Origin: a virus
Taxonomy: Duplodnaviria; Caudoviricetes
Direction: 5' to 3' (one strand)
IMG/VR virus record: IMGVR_UViG_3300022181_000002
Coordinates: 1-45,370 of that record
DNA: 45,370 nucleotides
The notes under the pieces: model-generated
Databases searched by the model: none
Told to the model about the DNA's origin: nothing
Seen by the model: the letters and a program-made list of their open reading frames with translations, nothing else
Shown here: positions 6,598 through 45,292 of the stretch, one piece after another
How positions within the stretch are numbered: the first letter of the stretch is position 1
How the letters are laid out: the number at the start of each line of letters is the position of its first letter
Position numbers and translations under genes: made by a program

Positions 6598-6626
6598 TTG
6601 ACTATTATGTTCTTGCGTGCTATCAT
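6598..6626 (+). promoter_or_regulatory. Sigma-A promoter for a type I antitoxin RNA
   Basis: TTGACT-17 bp-TGC-TATCAT. Confidence 0.8.
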
Positions 6627-6632
6627 ACAATT

Positions 6633-6714
6633 ATAAAAGGAGTTGCCGCTTTTGGAACGGCGGCAGGTCCTAAATGGCTTTAGACCGCCTTATCCAAGGC
6701 GGTCGCTTACTTTC
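6633..6714 (+). ncRNA. Putative type I antitoxin RNA, convergent on the toxin mRNA 3' end
   Basis: Promoter at 6598-6626; hairpin TGCCGC/GCGGCA; terminator GACCGCCTT-ATCC-AAGGCGGTC (6683-6704). Confidence 0.7.
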
Positions 6715-6787
6715 TGAGCAAGATACTCAGAGAAATAACCCCTATGAGTACCAGACAGAACTGAAACAATTCGCCATATGTAATCAT
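6707..6787 (-). CDS. Type I toxin-like 26-aa membrane peptide MITYGELFQFCLVLIGVISLSILLRK
   Basis: Manual translation; GGGGAGGTG RBS; single hydrophobic helix with a basic C-terminus; convergent sRNA. Confidence 0.8.
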   Translation of the reverse strand: MITYGELFQFCLVLIGVISLSILLRK

Positions 6788-6912
6788 AGGCATCACCTCC
6801 CCTCGCGGGAAAGTGACCAACCGCCAAGCGGCAACTCCGCTTTCTATATTAGCACATCGCCTATTCTTGCGATCCCCCCCAATGGGTAATATTGGGTATA
6901 ATTAGGGGTGAG

Positions 6913-7128
6913 GTGATTTATATTTTAGAGTTATTTGACATTATTGCCGACATAGCCATAATTGCCGGGGTCATATTGTTTGTTCAATATCTTTATTATC
7001 GCTATCACGATGGACATGTAGAATTTATCCTTTGGAAACGCCAGCAAAAAGAGCAGCAAGTAAGAGCCGCCAAGCTTGAAGAAAGCCCCAATGTAATCCG
7101 CTTATCCGAACGCCGCCAAGCCAAGTAA
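6913..7128 (+). CDS. Small membrane-anchored protein, convergent with the ejection gene
   Basis: N-terminal TM helix (IIADIAIIAGVILFVQYLYY); stop codon abuts the stop of the 1792-aa gene; start uncertain (6892 or 6913). Confidence 0.6.
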   Translation: MIYILELFDIIADIAIIAGVILFVQYLYYRYHDGHVEFILWKRQQKEQQVRAAKLEESPNVIRLSERRQAK

Positions 7129-10100
7129 TTACTTCTTCCGCTTAATCCCTCTCGCATTTAAAATCGTATCTTTGGCCCTGTCGCTTGCATCGGATATTAT
7201 CCCGTTCATCTTTTTAACCATCGTTGCTGCATCCCCGGTTACATTTAATTTTGCTATTTGTTGTCTTGCGTAATCCCCGGCTATTTGCTGATAGATTGCG
7301 TATTCATTAGGGGTTAGGTCTATGCGTTCGCTCTTTTTGCCCCCTGCTGGAGTATAAGTAATATACCTTTGTTTGACCGGGGGGAGCACCGCATTTTCAC
7401 CGGATAAATTGTAAATGTCCAATACCTTTTGAGCTTCAGGCATCGGGTTATACCGGTTCACAAACGCCGGATTAATAAGAGCATTGAAAGGGTTGTTTTC
7501 TGTCAATCCACTGCCTTCCTGGTAAGTCTTTAGAGGCTGCCCAAAGGTGCCGTATTGTTGCGGTAATGTTTCGGATAGCCCAGGTATTTTGTTAATTGCT
7601 TTGTTTTTTGTTTCGGCAAAATAATCCGGGCTGTATGTTGAGCGTTTATCATTGTCCATCAGTTGCTTAATCTGGTTAAATAGTGTGGGCACGAACGACG
7701 CTGGGACGCCTTGAAGGGCATTGGCAAGTCCAGCGAATAAATCATTATATCCGGTTATTTGCATAAGACCAGATATTACCGGCTGCTCGGCGAAGGCGTT
7801 TATACCAGTCGATAGTCCATTTATTAATAGCGAAGGCATACCAGCTAAATTTCCCACGATCCCTTTCTTCTGGTTTTTGTTCTTATCAATGTCCGCACCC
7901 ATGGCAAGGCCTATGGAATTAGGTTGAAACCAGTCATAAGACACGGTGATATCCCCGGATCTCAATTTCGCCTCATTTGGATTAAAGCCACTGGCAATAA
8001 ATCTTTTTAGTCCAGAAACATTAATGCGATACTGCCCAAATCCGGCCTGAGTTTTCAGATTTTCAACATCCCTGTCTTCATCTGGCCCGCCAGTTATTAT
8101 GCCAAGCTCATGAAGTATCGCTCCGGTTCCTACTAAAGCGGTACTACCGACGAGTGCCCGGCTGGTTACTTCTACAAAAGCCTTCTGGTTAAATTCGCGC
8201 CCAAATAAAGGCCGGCCTAATTCAATGACAGATTTAATAAACCCGGCAGGTGAATACTCAATGCCTCTCATGAGCAAATTAGCAGGTGTTTTTGGATACT
8301 TCAGTACAAAGTCGCCAAGGCCAAAGCCTTTGCCCAAGTTGAGTGCGTTTTTAACCTTTGTAAAGGCTTGGGCTGCTAAACTATCATCCTGGAATGTACG
8401 ATAAAGAGCATCATGGTGAGCCTGTTCCTCCATGGCTTTCATTTCCCTCGGCGCCTTTGATTTTGCGGCTGCTGCTATTTGCTGTCGTAGACTTTCATTG
8501 TAAGCCGCCTGGTAAAAGGCTCTATCCGGTACCCTTAGTTCGTAATTCATAGCCTTTTCAAGCTTTGATAATGGTCCTCTTGTAAACACCCTTTGAGTAG
8601 GTATATCAAACTTGCCTGCTCCCATATTGCTTGTATCAATACCTAAGTTTGCGTCCCTGATGCCCTTCTTGCCGCCCTCAATAAACCCTTTGCTTTGCGT
8701 TATCAACGAAGGGAAAACTTTGGTTCTGTTTTTGGTTGCGCCGCTTATAAGTTTATCAATCCCGCTTCCCACAACGTCGCTAAGATTATCCATCACACCA
8801 AAACCCAGGTTGCCAATGATATTCCTGGTTGCAGTTTTAAGATTAAGCAGCTGCATCATCGTTTGGAATGTTGCTATCTTTTTACCAACACTAGGCGGCA
8901 CCTGTTCGGCAATTATTCCTAAGGCTTGTTGTACTTTTACGTTTTTGGCGTCACCTTCGAGTTTTTCAGCTTCTTTCATGTATTGTAATATCTTGTTGGC
9001 CGCATCTTCGTCCAGTTTTATAGGCTTCTTGACACCCTTTTTAAGCAGTTCCTGGTTGGCCCGGGCGATAACTTTCTGCCCATAAGTAAGCATTCCTTCA
9101 GGGGTAAGCTTACCCCACATAGAAAGGGCCTGGATAGCTTGACCTGCTTCAGTGGCTTTCTTCGCCAGAGCTTCGGTAATATCTACCGCAAGGTTAATGT
9201 CTCCTGAATTATTGGCTGCTTTAACCAGCATAAGCCCAGCGGTATTATCTACCCTATCTGATGCCCAGCTCTCGTCAAGTATTCTTCTGACTACCGCGCC
9301 GGGGTCTTTCGCTAAAGCCGCCTGGGCGTCAGCAATCGTCTGTTTATTGGTTATAGGATCGTAGGCCCCTATTTCATTGGGGGCTATATCCTGCGCCAGC
9401 CTGTCAACATATTCAGGGCTTGCCCACGGAGAGTTAGCCGCCGACACATCCAGGGAACGAGGCTTTTGCCCGTTTTCAAAAGGAACCCCTTTAACTATCG
9501 GTACTTCCTGACCCTGGTATCTCAAGACGGTCTGTGCGGACTGCGGCACCCCCGGGCGCGGTGCCGGCGCATTTAACTCCGCCCTGGTTATCGGCACTTC
9601 CTGTCCGCCAAACTTTACAGAAGTCTGCCCAGTTTTCTTCAATTCCCGGGCCTTGTACCATACGTCGCCCAGAAGCTTTTCGCTATAGGACCGGTTAAAG
9701 GCTTCGGGGAAATCCTTCTCCATCAATTTCAGCCAGTGAGAGTATCCGCCCTTATAAACATGCTCGGCTCCTTTAATAATCATAGAGCGAACATCATCCA
9801 CCGGCGAGGTAGAACCTTGTTCGGAGAACTTGAAAGCCATGTCACGCTTTGCAGCTATTTCAGTTGGACGGCTAACTTTGCCGGCTTTCATATCGGCCAA
9901 ATAGCCTCCATACTCGTCGGCTAGGCGGTTGCGCATTATCTCGACGTCACGTAGGTACGGAAGGATTGTCATATCCTCGCCTATCGCTTGCCGGAACCGG
10001 TTTATAAGGCTATCCAGGGCATCCAATAAAGGCTTTAACAGTTCGGGGCTTTGCTGACGTACCCTGGCCCAGAAGGAACTATCCATCATGCTCTCGGCCA

Positions 10101-12507
10101 TGGCATCAGCGGTAAGCTCACGGTGTAATTGTTCCGGAGTATAGCCCTGCCGCTTGTAGTGGGCGCTCAAGCCCTCGCTGTCGGCTATATGCTCCCTGGC
10201 TATGGCCTCCAGCCTTGAATACACCTCCGGGGAGCGGGTTTGTAAATCGTGCGTTAGTTCATGCCCGGCGACGTATAGCAGGGGTTGTTTTGATTCAGCA
10301 TTAAGCCATATGTTTTGACCATCGCTTGCCCCGTGAACATCTTCCCTGCCTTTAAAAGGTATAACTTCGCGGCCAGATAATGACTTTGATAAATTATTTG
10401 CCGCAACAAACTCGGGGTTTTGCATGGCTTCAGGGGCGTGTTTAACTTTGCCGGTTTTTATTAACCCAAAAAAGTGGCTGTCAGCAACCTCTTTATTAAG
10501 GGTCTTAATTTCACGGGGTTGGAGCTTTAAGTCAGATCCCTGTCCGCCGTTGCCTTTTGTTATATCAGGTGGTATATTTTCAGTAAGGGCATCTGCTCCC
10601 TCTCCGGGACGAGTACGCATAGGCCCGGATTGCGTAGTTCCGAGCAAGCCATCACCCTTGCCGGTTACATCGGATGCCCTTTTGCTATTTTCCCATCCTG
10701 TTAATAACCACGTTTCTTTATTTAAATCCCGGTATAATGACAACACTGCGGTATGCCCGTCATGGGTTATATTTACCCTGGTCCAACCTTCCGGGCCATA
10801 GAAAGGCCCGCGTTCTCCCCTGGCAATTACATCCACCATTTTTCTTGCAACTTGTTCCCCGTTGAATCCCTGTTTGTTTCGCCCCTCAATAATATGTCTT
10901 ACTCCGCTCTTTGAATCACCCCAATAAAAAGAGATATCTCCAAGATCGGGCCTGTACATTGCATTTAGGGCATCGGCTTGGCTTCCTATTACTTTGTCCA
11001 TCGCGGCTTGCCCGGACGCGATGTTTTTAATTGTTAATTCTTCGTCAAACCCGCTCCGTTTTAGATTTATGGTTTGTCTCGGCACGTTTGCCACCTCGGC
11101 CATGCGGGTTCTTTCAGCAGCATAGCCCGGGTCTGCTTCCATCCGGTAGAGGTTATCCAGATCGTAACCCTTTTTCCTGGCTAAATCTCTGGCCAGGCCG
11201 TATAGATCGGCTTTCCGCTGGTTCGCTATGTCCTGGGCCAGGCTAGACAGTTGAGCGTATTTCATGCGCCGTATTTCATTCTTACTGATCGCGCCGTCCA
11301 GGCCGTCATAGATATAGCCCACCAGAACCTTGCTGCGCTCCCTGGGCGGGGTGATTAGTTCCTGTATTTCGGGTCGAAGTTCTTCCATCAACTCATAATA
11401 GGTTTTAGGCTTAGGACCAGTATACCTGCCAACCTCGCCGGCGTTAAAAGACAGATCAACATCGGCTAACCCCGCAACCGGTTTTTTATTTGTGATAGTA
11501 TCCGGGCCCAAAGTGCTCCGAAGGGCCGATTGTATTTCTTGAGGCGTAGCCGACCGGCCAGCCGGGTTATATAGGGCGCCGCCTGCTTCTTCTCCAGAAA
11601 CATCTGCTAAATCCAGGTAATCAAAACTCTCTGAAGCTTGGACCGGGGCTTTGGCGCCTCTGCCTTTAACTGCGCTTGCCGCTTTGCCCAGTCCTTTAAA
11701 CGCCAGGTTCGGCGCCATCCACATAGCTGCAAACTCCGGGAGGCTTTCACGTTCTTCGGCCGTTTTGGGGGTTTGTGTTATCGCATAGTTTTCAAGCATG
11801 AGAGCCGCATCACCAGCAAGGTATTTAGCAGCCGCATTTTCAGCCAGTTTAGGCGCAACTTTGGTCAATGCCCGTTCCCCTACTCCAACTGCACCGGCCC
11901 CCGTTAAAATAGAAGGCAAAAACTCTCCAAAAACGCCCAGTGTTTTTTCAAGATTGGTATCTTTTAAGCCAAGTAATTCATTGGCGGCAGGCTCTATTTT
12001 CTGATCCCAATATTGGTCCATTGCCCTAGCTGTCGGAGTTAAGTTTGTGCCGGTAGACTTTAGATTAAAGTGATCTTTTATAATTATTCCTGGCAGACCG
12101 CCCATCATGGGATTGGTGTCAAAGTTTTCTGCCGCTAGTATCCCCAAGCCTTTAATGGCCCCCTTGGCCGAAGAAATGGGCAACCGCCAGGCTTTGCCTG
12201 CGTCCCATTCCCCGGTATCAGAGACCATCTCCTTCGCTACTTCCCCAACCACTCCCAGCTTCTCCCCCAAAGTCAACTTAGCTGGAGTCTTAGCCGCCTC
12301 AATCATGGTATTGGCTATATCAATACCTTTATTAGCCAACGTTGCGTTTTGGCGAATGGTTTCAATAGCTCGTATCTTCTCCTCGTCAGTTGTTCCATCT
12401 GCCCAATCAAAGGAGTCGAATAGGGCCTGTTGCTGCTGTTGCCTTATTTCTTCCGTTCTGTCAGGGATACCGTATTTAGCCATTACTTCTTGTAAATATT
12501 TGCCCAT
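7129..12507 (-). CDS. Large polyvalent virion/ejection protein with PBECR-type nuclease and zincin metallopeptidase domains
   Basis: 1792 aa, last structural gene. PBECR1-like segment (AMYRPDLGDISFYWG..GVRHII..WLLTGWE, ~10690-11010); HELTH plus ELTAD zincin (~10090-10320); helical LPD38-like C-terminus. Confidence 0.85.
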   Translation of the reverse strand: MGKYLQEVMAKYGIPDRTEEIRQQQQQALFDSFDWADGTTDEEKIRAIETIRQNATLANKGIDIANTMIEAAKTPAKLTLGEKLGVVGEVAKEMVSDTGEWDAGKAWRLPISSAKGAIKGLGILAAENFDTNPMMGGLPGIIIKDHFNLKSTGTNLTPTARAMDQYWDQKIEPAANELLGLKDTNLEKTLGVFGEFLPSILTGAGAVGVGERALTKVAPKLAENAAAKYLAGDAALMLENYAITQTPKTAEERESLPEFAAMWMAPNLAFKGLGKAASAVKGRGAKAPVQASESFDYLDLADVSGEEAGGALYNPAGRSATPQEIQSALRSTLGPDTITNKKPVAGLADVDLSFNAGEVGRYTGPKPKTYYELMEELRPEIQELITPPRERSKVLVGYIYDGLDGAISKNEIRRMKYAQLSSLAQDIANQRKADLYGLARDLARKKGYDLDNLYRMEADPGYAAERTRMAEVANVPRQTINLKRSGFDEELTIKNIASGQAAMDKVIGSQADALNAMYRPDLGDISFYWGDSKSGVRHIIEGRNKQGFNGEQVARKMVDVIARGERGPFYGPEGWTRVNITHDGHTAVLSLYRDLNKETWLLTGWENSKRASDVTGKGDGLLGTTQSGPMRTRPGEGADALTENIPPDITKGNGGQGSDLKLQPREIKTLNKEVADSHFFGLIKTGKVKHAPEAMQNPEFVAANNLSKSLSGREVIPFKGREDVHGASDGQNIWLNAESKQPLLYVAGHELTHDLQTRSPEVYSRLEAIAREHIADSEGLSAHYKRQGYTPEQLHRELTADAMAESMMDSSFWARVRQQSPELLKPLLDALDSLINRFRQAIGEDMTILPYLRDVEIMRNRLADEYGGYLADMKAGKVSRPTEIAAKRDMAFKFSEQGSTSPVDDVRSMIIKGAEHVYKGGYSHWLKLMEKDFPEAFNRSYSEKLLGDVWYKARELKKTGQTSVKFGGQEVPITRAELNAPAPRPGVPQSAQTVLRYQGQEVPIVKGVPFENGQKPRSLDVSAANSPWASPEYVDRLAQDIAPNEIGAYDPITNKQTIADAQAALAKDPGAVVRRILDESWASDRVDNTAGLMLVKAANNSGDINLAVDITEALAKKATEAGQAIQALSMWGKLTPEGMLTYGQKVIARANQELLKKGVKKPIKLDEDAANKILQYMKEAEKLEGDAKNVKVQQALGIIAEQVPPSVGKKIATFQTMMQLLNLKTATRNIIGNLGFGVMDNLSDVVGSGIDKLISGATKNRTKVFPSLITQSKGFIEGGKKGIRDANLGIDTSNMGAGKFDIPTQRVFTRGPLSKLEKAMNYELRVPDRAFYQAAYNESLRQQIAAAAKSKAPREMKAMEEQAHHDALYRTFQDDSLAAQAFTKVKNALNLGKGFGLGDFVLKYPKTPANLLMRGIEYSPAGFIKSVIELGRPLFGREFNQKAFVEVTSRALVGSTALVGTGAILHELGIITGGPDEDRDVENLKTQAGFGQYRINVSGLKRFIASGFNPNEAKLRSGDITVSYDWFQPNSIGLAMGADIDKNKNQKKGIVGNLAGMPSLLINGLSTGINAFAEQPVISGLMQITGYNDLFAGLANALQGVPASFVPTLFNQIKQLMDNDKRSTYSPDYFAETKNKAINKIPGLSETLPQQYGTFGQPLKTYQEGSGLTENNPFNALINPAFVNRYNPMPEAQKVLDIYNLSGENAVLPPVKQRYITYTPAGGKKSERIDLTPNEYAIYQQIAGDYARQQIAKLNVTGDAATMVKKMNGIISDASDRAKDTILNARGIKRKK
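10550..10578 (+). promoter_or_regulatory. Antisense sigma-A promoter inside the polyvalent gene
   Basis: TTGCCT (10550-55), 17-bp spacer ending TGG, TATATT (10573-78): extended -10. Confidence 0.7.
10585..10691 (+). ncRNA. Putative ~100-nt structured RNA (candidate antitoxin for the PBECR nuclease domain)
   Basis: Closing stem 10585-95/10671-81; TCCGGG/CCCGGA; TACGCA/TGCGTA; GCAAG/CTTGC; T-rich tail; predicted +1 coincides with the first stem base. Confidence 0.6.
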
Positions 12508-25479: not shown

Positions 25480-26505
25480 TCACCCCATTCCCCACTTCTT
25501 TAGTAAGTACGCCTGCTGCTCGGGCGTGGCGTTCATGTAATCCTCGCGCAAGTCCTCAGGCAGCCTAGACCAGTCGAGAGGCTTATTGTCGATTTGAATT
25601 GTTTTTCGCTGCTGGCCAGCTATATAACAGTTAATCGCCCTGGCCATTACGCAATCATCATGAAATCCCTCCGCGGCTTCTGGCCGGCCTTTTTCGTTTT
25701 TAATAAAAGTTGTCATTTCGTTTAGGGTGTCTATGTCTTTTACACGTTCGGGATGTTCCCTTATGATAGTTCTTAGCATCCCCAAAGCTACCGGGCGCGT
25801 AAGCTTGTTTGTATTGAATCCGAACCGCTTTGTCAGTTTGCCGGTGAAAGCATCCGGGGTTTCTTCTCTGACATATTGGTTCGGATAGTTCAGCCGGGTT
25901 AATTCTTTCATGGGATGCGTGCTGTAATTCGTTTCTACTCCGATCAGGGCGTCATTATAATAACACCCCAAGCAATACATTTGCCGGGCATATAAATCTT
26001 CATCAAAGTTAATGCGAAGGCTGGCCACGTCCTGCTCTGTGGTATTATCGGTAAATGCGCCTGTATTCCAGTCGCTGCCCTCTCCAGCTGTGTCGCCTCC
26101 CCCAACATATGGATATCCCTTTTTAGGTTCCTCGTAAATTTTGATATAGCCTTGATCATCGCCTACCCACTCATAGCCAATTATCTTATCATGTGTGCTT
26201 GCGTCATTCCATTTAATTTCGAAATAGCCCTGTTTAAGCGGCTTTTTTGTTCGTTCTTCTTTGATGCGCCTGGCTACATTTTTCTTGTTAAAAAAAGTGC
26301 CCCCGGGGATTCCCCAGAGGCCCAATGCGTATATATTATATTCATCCTCGTCGTATTTCTTTAGATCCTCCATTTCTTTGGCATATGCCGTATCAATAAA
26401 GGGATTGTCATGATAAGTTGAATGGATTATCAATGTATCATAATCATTTACATTTCCTTTAAATGCCGCGGCTTGCTTAGTTCCGTATATAATTAGTCTA
26501 CTCAT
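25480..26505 (-). CDS. terL: Terminase large subunit, C-terminal part (lid plus RNase H-like nuclease)
   Basis: STYHDNPF, YALGLWG, GGDTAGEGSD, VETN and GFHDDCVMA motifs; GAGAGG RBS before ATG 26505. Confidence 0.88.
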   Translation of the reverse strand: MSRLIIYGTKQAAAFKGNVNDYDTLIIHSTYHDNPFIDTAYAKEMEDLKKYDEDEYNIYALGLWGIPGGTFFNKKNVARRIKEERTKKPLKQGYFEIKWNDASTHDKIIGYEWVGDDQGYIKIYEEPKKGYPYVGGGDTAGEGSDWNTGAFTDNTTEQDVASLRINFDEDLYARQMYCLGCYYNDALIGVETNYSTHPMKELTRLNYPNQYVREETPDAFTGKLTKRFGFNTNKLTRPVALGMLRTIIREHPERVKDIDTLNEMTTFIKNEKGRPEAAEGFHDDCVMARAINCYIAGQQRKTIQIDNKPLDWSRLPEDLREDYMNATPEQQAYLLKKWGMG

Positions 26506-27058
26506 CGCCAAAGAACCTCTCATTGAGCCACGACAATTCGGATACCGGGTTAAAGGTCAGCATAAATTGCATATACTTGTCGCTTCCGTCTGCGTTTTTG
26601 CCCTTATAACCCCTTAACCGCCTGTTAAGTTCCCGAAAGTCTTCTGGGCTTATCTCGTTGGCTTCCTCTGCCCATATGCTTGTAATGTCATATATGGATT
26701 TTAGTTTTTCAACATCGTCGAGGCCTGAAAATATAATTTGGTTGCCGTTGGGCTTAAACGTTATTTTCTCATTTCCCATGGACTCGTTAATTTTAAATAG
26801 ATCGCTAAGCCCCCAGCGCTTTACCTCACCTTTTAGTAGGGGGAATTGTGATTTTGTTACACTTTTTCCGGTATCGCGAACGCAAAGTAAATTATGATTA
26901 TCCTCTTTAATGGTACGGATGAGAAACTTGTCGGCCGCAAAATAGCTTTTCCCCGATCCTGAGCCCCCGTATAAAATGAGAAACCGGCCTTTATATTTAA
27001 AAGCCGGGTAATATATGGGCGGTATCATTTTAGCTAAGTTAGTTAAGTCTATCTCCAC
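26498..27058 (-). CDS. terL: Terminase large subunit, N-terminal ATPase part (PBSX-type)
   Basis: Walker A YGGSGSGKS, Walker B IWAEEA, SGLDDVEKLKS and coupling motif TFNP. Confidence 0.9.
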   Translation of the reverse strand: MEIDLTNLAKMIPPIYYPAFKYKGRFLILYGGSGSGKSYFAADKFLIRTIKEDNHNLLCVRDTGKSVTKSQFPLLKGEVKRWGLSDLFKINESMGNEKITFKPNGNQIIFSGLDDVEKLKSIYDITSIWAEEANEISPEDFRELNRRLRGYKGKNADGSDKYMQFMLTFNPVSELSWLNERFFGDE

Positions 27059-38120: not shown

Positions 38121-39155
38121 ATGAATAGCGAGCATTATAATCCCCGATACTACACTTTGCACTATATTCCAGAACATAGAAAATCATTCATAGAATTACG
38201 ACTAAACCAGTTTCTAAAGGATTATGATGTAAAACGTCCCCCTATAGATAGTGTTTCGCTGATAAAAAAGATGCAGCATAAGAAATTAATTAATTTTGAT
38301 TATACGTTTGTGCCAAATATTACAGCAAGTTTTGAAGCCCAAGCTAGATATTATTTAGAATATAACCTTTATGCTGTTCTCATCAATAAGACGAAAGCAA
38401 AAAAAAGTTATCCCTACAAAAAGCCTAGCGATCGTCGGTTAAATTTTACTTTAGCCCATGAATTCGGGCATATTTTTCTTGATCACTTGTTAATTTCTGA
38501 TCAGGACAAAACTCCCGCAATCCGTCGTATTGAGCATGAAGAAGCTAATGAATTTGCAGGAAGATTATTAATGCCTAGGGATATTTTGTTATCTTGCAAT
38601 TTTATATCACGCGACAAAGTATCTGACCAATTTATTGTTTCAAATCAAGCTTTATTTAAGAGGTTAAATCACCTTAAAAGGCTCGATTTGTATGGCTCCC
38701 CGACAATTCAAGTTTGCCAAAACTGTGAGAACAAAGAGATTTCTCCAGTAGCATATTACTGCAAAATTTGCGGTAGAGAGTTGTTAAATAGTTCTAAAGG
38801 AGTCCTAACAATGAAATATGATGGTTACGAGTTAGACGAAAACAACAGCTTCTCTGTTTGCCCACGGTGTGAAAATGAAGAAATATCGGGTAGCTATTGC
38901 AAGATATGTGGTATTTATGTCCGAAATGAATGTATTAATGATTATTGCTCTGCCCCTGCTGAAGGCAATGCCAGATATTGTGAAGAATGCGGGAGCATGA
39001 CGACATTTTATAATAATGGCCTTCTAAAGAGGTGGGATATAGCAAAAGCCATTATTGAAGGCCGTAATGAGGATGCTGAGGCTCTAGAAGAAGAATTAAG
39101 GGCACAAAAAGAGGCCGCTGCTGCTAGAAATTCCGAATGGGACATTCCATTTTAG
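38121..39155 (+). CDS. ImmA/IrrE-family metallopeptidase with zinc ribbons and an SSB-like tail
   Basis: RRLNFTLAHEFGH...EANEFAGRLLMP; multiple CxxC; ends WDIPF. Confidence 0.9.
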   Translation: MNSEHYNPRYYTLHYIPEHRKSFIELRLNQFLKDYDVKRPPIDSVSLIKKMQHKKLINFDYTFVPNITASFEAQARYYLEYNLYAVLINKTKAKKSYPYKKPSDRRLNFTLAHEFGHIFLDHLLISDQDKTPAIRRIEHEEANEFAGRLLMPRDILLSCNFISRDKVSDQFIVSNQALFKRLNHLKRLDLYGSPTIQVCQNCENKEISPVAYYCKICGRELLNSSKGVLTMKYDGYELDENNSFSVCPRCENEEISGSYCKICGIYVRNECINDYCSAPAEGNARYCEECGSMTTFYNNGLLKRWDIAKAIIEGRNEDAEALEEELRAQKEAAAARNSEWDIPF

Positions 39156-39179
39156 TGCTTTGAGAAAGAGGGAATATAT

Positions 39180-39734
39180 TTGAATAAATCAATAATAGGA
39201 AAGAAATACGGTGCCTTTCCCTCGGATGAAAACGACCGGTTTTCCTGGTGCATTAACTGCGGCTTTAGCGATTTCAGTCCTACCGCTACTTACTGTGAAA
39301 TATGCGGCCAAAAACTCTTTAACTATTGCTCTGGTGATGATTGTTGGCAGTCATGTGAACCTTACGCCAGGTACTGCGAGAAGTGTGGCAGCCCTTCCAT
39401 GCTCTTAAAAAAGGAACTTTTATGGCCGTATACCAAGCCTATAGAATATGACCTAGATACAATAGATACCCTATGGAAGAGCTTTTTCGAAGATCGGGCG
39501 AAAGTCATAGAAGATATAGCCTGGCTTGCCAAAGTTTTTGACACTGGCGACTACAACGAGTTTACGGGAGTATTGACTCTTTTAGTTAATAACGACAAAT
39601 CCAGCCCAGAAGGTCTTCCTCTATCTGAATTCTTCCCTAAGCTGGAGTGGGAGTTTTCAAGGTATCTAAATCAATCTATTACTCTGAAGATTGAGTATTT
39701 AATAGTGCCTGGAGATGATGATATTCCCTTTTAA
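39180..39734 (+). CDS. Double zinc-ribbon protein with an SSB-like tail
   Basis: CINC, CEIC and CEKC; N-terminus paralogous to the ImmA C-terminal ribbons; ends GDDDIPF. Confidence 0.8.
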   Translation: MNKSIIGKKYGAFPSDENDRFSWCINCGFSDFSPTATYCEICGQKLFNYCSGDDCWQSCEPYARYCEKCGSPSMLLKKELLWPYTKPIEYDLDTIDTLWKSFFEDRAKVIEDIAWLAKVFDTGDYNEFTGVLTLLVNNDKSSPEGLPLSEFFPKLEWEFSRYLNQSITLKIEYLIVPGDDDIPF

Positions 39735-40040
39735 TATCTTTATGACTTCTATCGGATGAGAACACCCAGGTCCCTCCAGAAACAAATGAAAAATCGTAAA
39801 ATACTATAAACATTTTAATATGCCCTGGCCCTGAACAAGAAACCATAGCCCGTCGGCCCAGGGGGGGGCCTGGTAAGCGGATGGGGAGATAATAGAAAAG
39901 GATTTTGACATTATGAGCCGAAATAGAACAAAATGAGGCAAAACTAGGATAATAGTGCATAAAAAAGTTAACAAATTGCGAAATTTTCAGCTTAATCGGG
40001 GTTGCGTTAAAAGTCAATTGGGCATAATATAATAATACAT

Positions 40041-40133
40041 CAAAGCCTAAACTTATTTAGTCAAGCTAATATGCCCATGGCAGTAAGCCTCCCACTATAC
40101 GGGAAGTGCCGAACCCTCGGGCTTTTGCTTTTT
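40041..40133 (+). ncRNA. Putative structured leader/antitoxin RNA upstream of the NYN gene
   Basis: Outer AAAGCC/GGCTTT, hairpin CTAAA/TTTAG, nested GGCA/TGCC and TCCC/GGGA, then a T-run; TATAAT at 40028. Confidence 0.5.
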
Positions 40134-40150
40134 AGGGAAGGAGCAATTTT

Positions 40151-40885
40151 ATGATTAAAACCGCTATATTGGTTGATGGAGGTTTTTATAGGTATCGAGC
40201 TCAATCTCTCTGGGGTGAAAAGCGCGCTACAGAAAGAGCGGATGAACTCATTAACTACTGCAATAGGCACTTATCCTATCATGGCAAGGAAAGCCTAAAA
40301 GCTGATCTTTATAGGATTTTTTATTATGATTGCCCTCCCATGAGTAAAAAAATGTATCACCCTCTATTGAAGCGTCAGATCGATTACGCAAAAACAGATT
40401 TATATACGTGGACTACTGAATTTTTCAATGAATTAAAGACCAAACGGAAAGTTGCCCTTAGATTAGGAACCTTAGCTGATAACCTAGCGCATTTCAACCT
40501 TAACCCTGAAATCACGAAAAAGCTTTGCCGAGGAATAATGAAATGGGACGAGCTAACACCAGAGGATTTTAAACTAGATGTTAAACAAAAAGGCGTAGAT
40601 ATGAAAATTGCTGTAGATATCGCGTCTCTTTCTTTCAAAAAGCAGGTTAATCAAATTATTTTAATTGCAGCTGATAGCGACTTTGTTCCGGCTTCAAAAT
40701 TAGCAAGAAGAGAAGGAATGGACTTTATTCTCGATCCAATGTGGGCCCCCATTAAGCCAGAACTACACGAACATATTGACGGTCTTAGATCATGCACTCC
40801 CAATCCCGGGATAAAAGCTCAAAGGCCGGCGAAAAAGTATACGGCAAAACCAGTGGCACCCAAGAAAGATGGCAAAAACCCGTAG
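40151..40885 (+). CDS. NYN/LabA-DUF88 PIN-fold ribonuclease
   Basis: AILVDGGF, RIFYYDCPP, KQKGVDMKIAVD and AADSDFVPA..AR.EG motifs. Confidence 0.92.
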   Translation: MIKTAILVDGGFYRYRAQSLWGEKRATERADELINYCNRHLSYHGKESLKADLYRIFYYDCPPMSKKMYHPLLKRQIDYAKTDLYTWTTEFFNELKTKRKVALRLGTLADNLAHFNLNPEITKKLCRGIMKWDELTPEDFKLDVKQKGVDMKIAVDIASLSFKKQVNQIILIAADSDFVPASKLARREGMDFILDPMWAPIKPELHEHIDGLRSCTPNPGIKAQRPAKKYTAKPVAPKKDGKNP

Positions 40886-41101
40886 AAGCAAAGTGGAAAG
40901 AATCTACCCGAGGGGTCGATGCCCTCCCGGAAGAGAACCCCGGCCTTACGTCCGAATGCAACTCGAGCCTCATCCTTCCACTGATTTAACTCTACTGCCT
41001 GGGGAGTAAAATGGCAACATGGCCCTTAACCTGTGGGGCGGAAGTGGATAAGGCCAATTAGGGTTCTTAATAACTTGAAATATTTTATTTATTAATGTAT
41101 T

Positions 41102-41124
41102 TTATTAACGGTAAGTGTTAATAA
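41102..41124. promoter_or_regulatory. Putative HigA operator
   Basis: TTATTAAC-N7-GTTAATAA inverted repeat 21 bp upstream of higB. Confidence 0.6.
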
Positions 41125-41145
41125 TATTGTTGACTGGGGAGTAAT

Positions 41146-41481
41146 ATGGAGATATACTTTATTACTAGGAAGATGTCAAAAACATTTAACTCAGAAAGAT
41201 CGCTTGTCAAAGAATATGGTGTTCTTGCATCGAAAATAGCCCAGCGACTTAGTGAGTTAAAGGCAGCTTCTAACCTGTCCCTCATCAGCCATCTTCCCCC
41301 ACCGAGATTACATCAACTTGAGGGGCAGCGAAAAAGTCAATACGCAGTTGATCTTAACGGCTCAATGAGGCTGATATTTACTCCAGCTGATGAGCCGTTG
41401 CCTGTCGTCAGCGATGGCGGGATAGACAAGGCTAGAGTAACTGAAATATTAGTAATAGGGGTGGAAAATTATCATGGCTAG
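41146..41481 (+). CDS. higB: HigB/RelE-family toxin (killer protein)
   Basis: RLHQLEGQRKSQYAVDL...RLIF...I.VENYH; toxin-first order overlapping higA. Confidence 0.88.
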   Translation: MEIYFITRKMSKTFNSERSLVKEYGVLASKIAQRLSELKAASNLSLISHLPPPRLHQLEGQRKSQYAVDLNGSMRLIFTPADEPLPVVSDGGIDKARVTEILVIGVENYHG

Positions 41482-42559
41482 AAAGAGATATGTATACGAG
41501 CCTGATTACGCAGTACCACCTGGGGATACTCTTCTTGAAACGATAGAATGTTTGAATATCTCTCAAGCCGAACTAGCTGAGAGAACAGGGCGTCCAACCA
41601 AAACTCTTAATGGAATAATTAAGGGTAAAGTTGCGATTACAGCAGAAACAGCTATTCAATTGGAAAGGGTTCTAGGGGTTGATGCTGGTTTTTGGCTTAA
41701 ATTAGAAAGCAACTATCAAGAAGCAGTCGCTCGAATAAAAGAAAAGGAAGCTCTTCAAACAGAACTTGAATGGTTAAAATCTATACCCATTAAAGAGATG
41801 ATTGCTTATAAATGGATTCCAGCATCCAAGGACAGCATAGAGCTTATTAGATCTGCTCTTCAATTTTTTGGAGTTGCATCGGTATCAGCATGGAAAAATC
41901 ATTGGGCTAATCCGGAAGTATCTTATCGCAAGTCGTTATGTTTTGAGAGTAATCCCGGTTCATTAACTGCATGGTTAAGAAAAGGTGAAATAACCGCACA
42001 GGCATTGTCATGTGGTCCATATAACCGCGCTAAGTTCCTCGAAGCCTTAAAGGAGATCCGCACTCTGACAAGAGAAGATCCTGGCGTATTTGTACCCAGA
42101 ATGATTTCTCTCTGCGCAGAGGCTGGAGTTGCATTGGTATTCGTTAGAGAACTTCCCAAATGTCCTGTTAGTGGAGCCGCTCGTTGGCTATCTCCTGATA
42201 AAGCGGTTATTCAATTAACTTTACGACATCGCTTTGATGATCATTTTTGGTTTAGCTTTTTCCATGAAGCTGGCCATATTTTAAATCCTCGCAAACGCGA
42301 TATATTCGTTGATTCCGATGCCGATCCAAACACAGCTGAAGAAGAAGAGGCCAATCGGCTCGCAAGAAATTCATTAATACCTGACGCCGCATATAGAGTA
42401 CTTCTTCAATCCAGACCTATCAGCCGAAAAAAAGTAATATCATTTGCCGAGCAACAGAAAATTGCTCCTGGAATTGTAGTCGGCCGCCTTCAGCACGATA
42501 AGGTTATTGAATATAAACATCTAAATAATCTCAAAAGAAAATTTGTTTGGGCTGATTAG
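41474..42559 (+). CDS. higA: HigA antitoxin fused to an ImmA/IrrE (M78) peptidase-like domain
   Basis: VPPGDTL..SQAELAERTG..AIT.ETA.QLE..FWL.LE; FWFSFFHEAGH...EEEAN. Confidence 0.9.
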   Translation: MARKRYVYEPDYAVPPGDTLLETIECLNISQAELAERTGRPTKTLNGIIKGKVAITAETAIQLERVLGVDAGFWLKLESNYQEAVARIKEKEALQTELEWLKSIPIKEMIAYKWIPASKDSIELIRSALQFFGVASVSAWKNHWANPEVSYRKSLCFESNPGSLTAWLRKGEITAQALSCGPYNRAKFLEALKEIRTLTREDPGVFVPRMISLCAEAGVALVFVRELPKCPVSGAARWLSPDKAVIQLTLRHRFDDHFWFSFFHEAGHILNPRKRDIFVDSDADPNTAEEEEANRLARNSLIPDAAYRVLLQSRPISRKKVISFAEQQKIAPGIVVGRLQHDKVIEYKHLNNLKRKFVWAD

Positions 42560-45217: not shown

Positions 45218-45263
45218 TGGAGCCGATGGCCGGATTTGAACCGGCGACCTGCTGATTACGAAT
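45218..45263. repeat. att core, right copy
   Basis: Identical to 574-619. Confidence 0.96.
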
Positions 45264-45292
45264 CAGCTGCTCTGCCACTGAGCCACATCGGC
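45218..45292 (-). tRNA. tRNA-Thr(CGT)
   Basis: GCCGATG acceptor stem, anticodon arm GCTGA-TTCGTAA-TCAGC, GGTTCAAATCC T-arm and encoded CCA; 75 nt. Confidence 0.97.

Follow-up and report, generated by a model that had tools for sequence, protein, structure and literature searches.

The antisense element behind the PBECR1 domain

The window analysed here, the 45,370 nucleotides (nt) of IMG/VR virus record IMGVR_UViG_3300022181_000002, is a 45-kb temperate phage with genes for an integrase, terminase, P22-like portal, capsid, holin and amidase. Its virion module includes the gene of a 1,792-amino acid (aa) polyvalent protein (7129..12507, minus strand), which has head and tail genes on one side and the holin and amidase genes on the other. 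Within this gene a predicted RNase domain of BECR fold, PBECR1, is encoded at 10678..11025 (minus strand, aa ~495-610). Directly behind the domain and antisense to it lies what is very probably a genuine gene for a structured non-coding RNA (ncRNA) of ~100-107 nt (10585..10691, plus strand), present as one copy in the window and predicted from a covariance model and covariation.

PBECR1 (PF18809, aa 516-610, E 3e-8) is the sole Pfam domain matched in the whole protein, with a score of 34.4 bits against a curated cut-off of 27.6, and its assignment also draws on an AlphaFold model, structure comparison and conservation. The model has a predicted local distance difference test (pLDDT) score of 92.8. 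Its best solved structural match is CdiA-CT 7m5f (Z 6.5, root-mean-square deviation 4.2 over 93), followed by BrnT (Z 5.5), RelE and colicin D, all BECR toxins, and all of these matches fall below Z 8, the tool's level for a clear match; the best Foldseek match had an E value of 5e-3. Both predicted catalytic residues, His538 (GVRHII) in an N-terminal helix and Thr603 (WLLTGW) in the last strand of the model, are present, and they are of the His plus Thr/Ser type predicted for PBECR domains in the available part of PMC5512222, where up to 26% of phage polyvalent proteins are said to carry such domains. The His is retained in 96/108 homologous domains and T/S in all 108, the latter being imposed by the search pattern.

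The element begins with a predicted sigma70/sigmaA promoter on the plus strand (10550..10578) that overlies the linker codons ENIPPDITKGN. It comprises TTGCCT (10550-55), a 17-nt spacer, the TG of an extended -10 (10570-71) and TATATT (10573-78), and A10585 is the predicted start. The open reading frame (ORF) of the polyvalent protein passes in frame through the whole element (KRASDVTG...ENIPPDITKGN). The covariance model matches 10579-10691 at 84.6 bits, with the window belonging to the model's training set, and describes a three-way junction. The closing stem P1 (10585..10681) pairs AAGGGCATCTG (10585-95) with CGGATGCCCTT (10671-81); it includes a U10594·G10672 wobble on the plus strand and the pair G10595-C10671, near-invariant in the family, and is 93.8% paired among homologues, with compensatory changes at 7/8 pairs. 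The junction strand J1 (GCUCCC, 10595..10600) is near-invariant, partly unpaired and exact in 96/117 parsed copies. Arm A (10600..10632) consists of the invariant pair C10600-G10632, a core of TCCGGG (10603-08) and CCCGGA (10624-29), and a 15-nt loop (ACGAGUACGCAUAGG, 10609-23); it is 90.8% paired, with 8/10 pairs compensatory. J2 (GCGUAG, 10632..10637), in which U10635 and A10636 are invariant, is exact in 100/117 copies. Arm B (10637..10668) pairs 10637-42 with 10662-68 around one bulge (87.3% paired, 6/6 pairs compensatory) and carries an inner hairpin of GCAAG (10644-48) and CTTGC (10657-61, CUUGC in RNA) with its loop. J3 (CAUC, 10668..10671; CAYC in the family) reads CATC or CACC in 103/117 copies. 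Sequence reading places a U-rich tail, TTGCTATTTT (10680..10691), after P1; it is weak in the window copy and forms the likely 3' end, and transcription may read through it into the domain. Direct reading of the window thus bore out every sequence feature on which the original prediction of this gene had drawn.

Within the window alone the signal exceeds chance only modestly. The promoter scores 9/12 and is one of 14 such sites in 6.5 kb, where shuffled sequence gives 8.7±3.0; the fold z value is -2.9 on the plus strand and -1.2 on the minus strand, and a terminator scan of the window did not call the tail after P1. Searches against Rfam 15 gave no match over the element, the only match in the window being a tRNA at 45221-92, and among eight homologous loci three weak matches (E 2-5) were found, none covering the element. 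Across homologues, by contrast with the window alone, the signal is far beyond chance.

Linkage and fold in homologous loci

A protein search of 1.84 billion sequences returned 712 matches at E<=0.001, and among the best 150 of these 712 the linkers following the domain carried common motifs in shifting frames. DNA retrieved with a pattern for the last two strands of the domain came from 29 viral, 118 metagenome and 89 genome loci. After duplicates and two short loci were removed, 379 loci yielded 116 distinct ones with a confirmed domain and at least 140 nt downstream, of which two derive from an RNA-pattern scan and one (L161) is identical to the window. The RNA was found directly behind PBECR1 in 115/116, always antisense (110 by nhmmer, 5 by the covariance model); in the single locus lacking it, L117, the domain is frameshifted and the element is interrupted. 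A scan that started from the RNA (120 loci) likewise pointed mostly to PBECR1. Considering all loci, 137/152 distinct RNA copies are situated behind the domain; for 11 no domain was recognised in the vicinity, and four have no flank. No copy among the 152 shares the strand of the domain. Independently picked Pfam PBECR1 loci carried this RNA in 3/8 cases in a sample of one class and in 1/1 in a sample of one phylum, the latter (L518) at 65 bits and with a TTGACA-17-TACACT promoter.

The titled records span Bacillota, Pseudomonadota, Thermodesulfobacteriota, Spirochaetota, Synergistota, Verrucomicrobiota, Elusimicrobiota, Melainabacteria, Bacteroidota and other host phyla, and the proteins that carry domain and RNA vary widely (portal, MuF, helicase, GGDEF, ART, LPD38). 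A search of GenBank phages gave only distant domains from Helicobacter, Acinetobacter and Pseudomonas phages. An initial scan with an RNA-only pattern (about 1,200 matches) returned mostly chance hits and was set aside.

Covariation was assessed on 85 sequences of less than 90% identity (mean 53%, range 33-89%). The three helices are the top mutual-information pairs, and compensatory changes occur in 21 of the 24 consensus pairs. Paired cells amount to 90.9%, compared with 62.0% in shuffled and 33-47% in slid controls, and double changes in helices number 626 against 198 in shuffles, which take no account of relatedness. Arm lengths hardly vary, and the junction strands GCUCCC, GCGUAG and CAYC are near-invariant. 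The original prediction took the P1 wobble as favouring the plus strand; family-wide, G·U pairs outnumber A·C pairs by 202 to 27 on the antisense strand, with the bias in 72 sequences against 5, and the same bias appears on pairs chosen by mutual information on the other strand. Simple minimum-free-energy folding leaves the strand undecided (48/85).

The family fold is a three-way junction and not an H-type pseudoknot. Of the two interleaved helices proposed at the outset as a pseudoknot, TCCGGG/CCCGGA survives as the conserved arm A. The second, TACGCA (10614-19) with TGCGTA (10631-36), is rejected because it shows no covariation (72.4% paired, 72.6% in shuffles) and needs T10631 and G10632, already paired in arm A, where it competes with the invariant C10600-G10632. 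Other candidate structures fared no better. A structure on the mRNA strand (k-turn, frameshift element or hammerhead-like CUGAUGA) runs against the G·U/A·C bias, and no GAAA core was seen by eye. Loop-loop kissing gave no uniform helix, although a tentative contact of one pair between loop A and arm B is paired in 61/72 sequences with four pair types. For tRNA mimicry there was no ARAGORN or Rfam match over the element; its UAG linker resembles tRNA U8-A9-G10, and the likeness goes no further.

A reverse promoter scoring at least 9/12 within a 15-nt span upstream was found in 47/85 homologues but in only 6/626 control windows, and in 0/85 on the sense side. Of 64 spacers, 58 measure 17 nt, and distances cluster in 3-nt steps. 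A tail of at least five T in 8 nt is present in 55/85, a count made with no control run. In 20 loci the protein ends before the RNA, usually ~30 nt or less from it, and the RNA is kept; by a crude ORF rule and in short flanks, no separate ORF of at least 50 aa led by a ribosome-binding site (RBS) lies between stop and RNA, and two ORFs near the stop run through the RNA itself. The CTACGC motif is translated in all three frames: one accounts for 72 cases, another for 14, and L477 supplies the third. Conservation past the protein stop and reading in three frames together indicate that the element is not protein-driven. The homologue survey, run as a check for a conserved reverse promoter and covariation behind the domain, found both and so upholds the claim of an antisense gene for a structured RNA, with a promoter of its own, at this position.

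Loop type tracks domain clade (the CUAA class requires two changes, compared with 24 in shuffles) on a quick domain tree with many open forks and three frameshifted rows. Among the 11 copies lacking a recognised domain, the two in L070 come after a domain that is broken or diverged, and a third (L311/L384) is found behind a PBECR3 domain at a distance of 115 nt. Records around candidate orphans contained no detected domain in 9/10 cases, two of these records being 87-89% complete and the rest 13-75%. Tandem copies occur in L102 (three), L058, L073, L213, L069 and L042, several with their own promoter-like site.

Other RNAs accompany related domains. Behind the domain of five distant-clade PBECR1 loci (L508-L512) inspection by eye revealed other stem-closed units with a closing stem and U-tail; a reverse promoter-like site is present in L509 and, by eye, in L508 and L511. 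Among 19 PBECR3 loci, all five with the domain in an ORF of over 1,400 aa have a reverse promoter (9-11/12, 17-nt spacer) whose +1 coincides with a different stem-closed RNA (L520:1818-1909, L530:1428-1518, L538:1323-1410, L532:1422-1508, L534:1377-1458), several with UUUCGGACGU. Their fold z values of -2.5 to -4.9 are optimistic, as the boundaries were picked after seeing the fold. Solo PBECR3 genes in the same set showed no consistent antisense promoter. Judged from sequence, each domain family appears to have its own RNA, as seen in the clade-specific loops, the distant PBECR1 loci and the 5/5 long-ORF PBECR3 loci.

Regions downstream of solo PBECR3 genes in L521, L522, L526 and L539 have non-coding motifs in common (GGCGGCGTATCC and GGCAGATGCCTGTTCTGCCC-like), possibly another RNA family. 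Orphan copies of the PBECR1-linked RNA stand right after genes labelled by eye as peptidase- or endolysin-like in L401, L436, L414, L479, L481 (about 885-997) and L461, the last with three diverged copies in 678 bp.

Transcription was followed in a relative, L194 (Sporomusa ovata DSM 2662, a cultured carrier), whose copy is matched at >=99% by reads of three RNA-seq runs (X6-X8); the strand convention was calibrated on host genes (first-mate-minus corresponds to plus RNA). All three runs contain antisense reads over about 1225-1734 of L194, covering element and domain; these few reads run through the domain and end near a terminator-like site (L194:1226-1204). Presumably, 151-nt paired libraries lose an RNA of ~100 nt. 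In the G001 prophage, an internal sense transcript of depth 10-70 (L516:2184-4000) stands out in an otherwise silent 11-kb polyvalent gene; the transcribed part, which we take to be methylase-like from an NPPF motif, suggests expression of individual domains from internal promoters in the lysogen.

Possible roles of the RNA

The RNA probably binds the PBECR1 domain, as its conservation pattern suggests. On balance we favour a type III-like RNA antitoxin that would bind and inactivate the predicted RNase and be made constitutively in lysogens. Its promoter, which would not depend on the silent late operon, would drive the RNA in lysogens and also at the time of late expression, and the protein-binding face would consist of the invariant junction bases and loop A. 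Bound by the RNA, the domain would stay inactive in the producer during virion assembly and, after injection, in a cell carrying a cognate RNA; once injected into a naive cell, and probably freed from the polyprotein, it would cut host RNA. Promoter, RNA and domain form one in-frame block of ~480 bp, so that any virion protein (portal, MuF, polyvalent) could acquire the domain together with its proposed immunity, whereas a separate immunity gene could not accompany an internal domain in that way. A protein partner is preferred to base-pairing because unpaired bases are invariant, because there is one RNA family per domain family and because orphans exist. Inhibition is preferred to activation or cargo because an intact domain of this clade is never seen without the RNA while the RNA is sometimes alone, because the RNA holds the immunity position of MuF toxins (PMC5576092, in the part available), and because transcription from its promoter would not require the late operon. 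More tentatively, it is possible that virion-delivered BECR nucleases have a dedicated partner RNA in place of a protein, organised as in-frame cassettes with family-specific RNAs, with orphan and tandem RNAs serving as immunity banks against the injected RNases of other phages (or with the ribonucleoprotein (RNP) itself injected).

The same conservation and the same pattern of one RNA per domain would be expected if the RNA were an activating cofactor, guide or cargo, packaged as an RNP at the portal or head and delivered by injection, with host RNAs or defence systems as conceivable targets. Fusion of the domain to portal and MuF head proteins (P0057, P0079, P0080, P0083, P0089, P0104, L437) fits this role, as do retention of the RNA where His is changed to Lys or Arg and the prediction, in the available text of PMC5512222, that inactive PBECR domains bind RNA. 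We nevertheless regard it as unlikely: the loops are conserved within clades and not hypervariable as in guides, and a constitutive sigma70-type promoter apart from the late operon, together with the orphans, suits immunity better. Type I-like control in cis, where the convergent RNA would anneal to the message just 3' of the domain, so that RNase III degrades leaky transcripts (compare RatA/txpA and SR4/bsrG), is improbable. For orphans and diverged tandem copies there is no target in cis, the junction bases stay near-invariant and unpaired in sequences of 33-89% identity although cis-complementarity requires no sequence conservation, and destruction of a virion protein message in mid-gene gives no protection during assembly; these points outweigh, in our judgement, the antisense orientation in every case, the geometry shared with 3'-overlapping antitoxins (PMC4152353, as far as its available text goes) and the extension of antisense reads in L194 through the domain to the terminator-like site.

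Three-way junctions with an invariant core are typical of catalytic or ligand-binding RNAs, and orphans as well as the tentative contact between loop A and arm B agree with an RNA active by itself (a ribozyme, tRNA-like decoy or anti-defence RNA), the domain being a chaperone or co-travelling partner. Such an RNA is quite improbable here, given the lack of an Rfam match to the element, whether at gathering score in the window or at E<=5 in eight homologues, the negative ARAGORN result at the element and the 137/152 copies that abut the domain. Least credible, and scarcely to be expected, is a structure acting at the DNA level, such as a recombination or single-stranded hairpin site by which the domain is mobilised, or a mere by-product of linker coding. 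The correctly spaced promoter a few bases before the stem, the U-rich tail after it and conservation outside coding sequence and in three frames speak for an RNA, and no matching element occurs at the other edge of the domain (the window has a single copy), even though the element does mark one edge of a mobile domain and a G·T wobble bias is possible in single-stranded DNA.

Several observations weigh against the antitoxin reading. RNase activity of PBECR domains is itself a prediction in the available part of PMC5512222, the median net charge of PBECR1 domains is 0, and the RNA is still present where the predicted catalytic His is replaced (9 K, 1 R and 1 Q of 108), which a pure binding role explains equally well. 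The domain-first pattern selected for one clade and for the Thr, so that both counts, of linkage and of T/S, are biased; 5/8 Pfam PBECR1 loci, from a more distant clade, lack this RNA family, and the pairing with PBECR3 in L384 blurs strict cognate pairing. Linkage alone can account for the congruence of loop type with the domain tree, the promoter scores below 9/12 in 38/85 copies, and orphans beside endolysin-like genes could point to a nuclease-independent role. In the L194 runs no abundant RNA was seen and the element signal is inseparable from background: the 3 kb received only 10-28 reads per run, antisense depth was 0.9-1.9 in the element bin and 0-1.9 in other bins of the gene, and one antisense fragment lies upstream of the promoter, with no pile-up at the start site.

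Comparison with known systems rests on the portions of the cited papers that were available. In ToxIN an RNase toxin is inhibited by RNA (PMC3401426), and the same is established for AbiF, with AbiF/RCd22 from a C. difficile prophage (10.1101/2025.04.15.648962). Like type III toxin-antitoxin (TA) systems (ToxIN, CptIN, TenpIN), the present element places a small structured RNA beside a (predicted) endoribonuclease, with a constitutive-type promoter and sometimes several copies (PMC3401426); inhibition by binding would, by analogy, be a further likeness. It differs in that the RNA is downstream, antisense (137/137 paired cases), often overprinted on codons and not co-transcribed, and no array of short tandem repeats with a terminator precedes the toxin, the window copy being single. 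It has three nested helices instead of an H-type pseudoknot, a short loop-loop contact remaining conceivable, and the nuclease is a domain of a virion protein with a BECR-type fold unlike ToxN, CptN or TenpN. The idea of a portable cassette therefore stands insofar as the RNA moves with the domain among unrelated carriers, but the cassette is not a type III TA system as defined. AbiF/RCd22 is a prophage-encoded toxin with a structured ncRNA, which neutralises by direct binding in cis and trans; it belongs to another protein family (Abi_2/AbiF, Cas13-linked, anti-phage defence) and has another RNA motif, whereas here the protein is a virion domain (10.1101/2025.04.15.648962).

MuF polymorphic toxins of temperate phages bear C-terminal nuclease domains on head proteins that are proposed to be injected, and 89% are followed by an immunity ORF (PMC5576092). 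The producer would need immunity here as well, and MuF-PBECR1 fusions with this RNA occur in L437 and L418, but an antisense RNA takes the position of the small downstream immunity protein (PMC5576092). The window protein resembles the PBECR domains of polyvalent proteins in having PBECR1 with His and Thr in a virion-module protein, and the available part of the paper on these describes no RNA gene or immunity associated with PBECR (PMC5512222). As in the prophage type I systems RatA and SR4, an antisense RNA lies, by position and strand, over the 3' side of the toxin transcript (PMC4152353). Those toxins are small hydrophobic peptides controlled by base-pairing, in contrast to the ~115-aa alpha/beta domain in a 1,792-aa protein (PMC4152353), and the invariant unpaired bases and copies lacking a cis target are further differences.

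No description of this RNA was found in the literature searched (subscription-only papers being outside its scope), and one 15-nt loop motif had no match in the searchable supplements of two RNA screens. Motif HMP2_1418 of such screens, 33 nt long and not compared with this RNA, has 21/104 copies within 5 kb of PBECR1. The data strongly support an uncatalogued RNA family tied to a phage nuclease domain and, if the mechanism holds, a new variant of RNA-antitoxin control. RNA antitoxins would then be known for a third fold, the BECR type, besides those of ToxN and AbiF, and for injected virion proteins as well as defence loci, and the shuffling of toxic domains inside polyproteins with no immunity gene would be explained. 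A covarying RNA partner at a fixed position makes the PBECR target and producer survival testable with a ~480-bp cassette. The family is also a well-supported structured ncRNA overprinted on coding sequence. Intergenic RNA screens skip coding-overlapping ncRNAs by design (PMC10690425, in its available text), and, if the mechanism is correct, they would have missed a new class of phage effectors under RNA control that extends across more than ten phyla.

Other features of the window

Next to the holin gene, a 28-aa hydrophobic ORF with a strong RBS (6707-6793, minus strand; no Pfam match) faces a plus-strand promoter, TTGACT-17-TATCAT (6598-6626), and 6598-6805 is likely a type I toxin-antitoxin pair. 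A 71-aa plus-strand ORF with a hydrophobic N-terminus (6913-7128; no Pfam match) abuts the stop of the polyvalent gene. The large terminase (25480-27058) appears split into two overlapping ORFs of 186 and 347 aa, each matching Terminase_3. Opposite to the lytic genes, a cargo block (38121-42559) encodes two IrrE/M78 proteins and an NYN-domain protein, and includes a HigB-like toxin (41146-41481, below cut-off) adjoining a helix-turn-helix (HTH)-M78 gene. A tRNA-Thr(CGT) gene (45218-45292) adjoins the integrase and is the likely attachment site.

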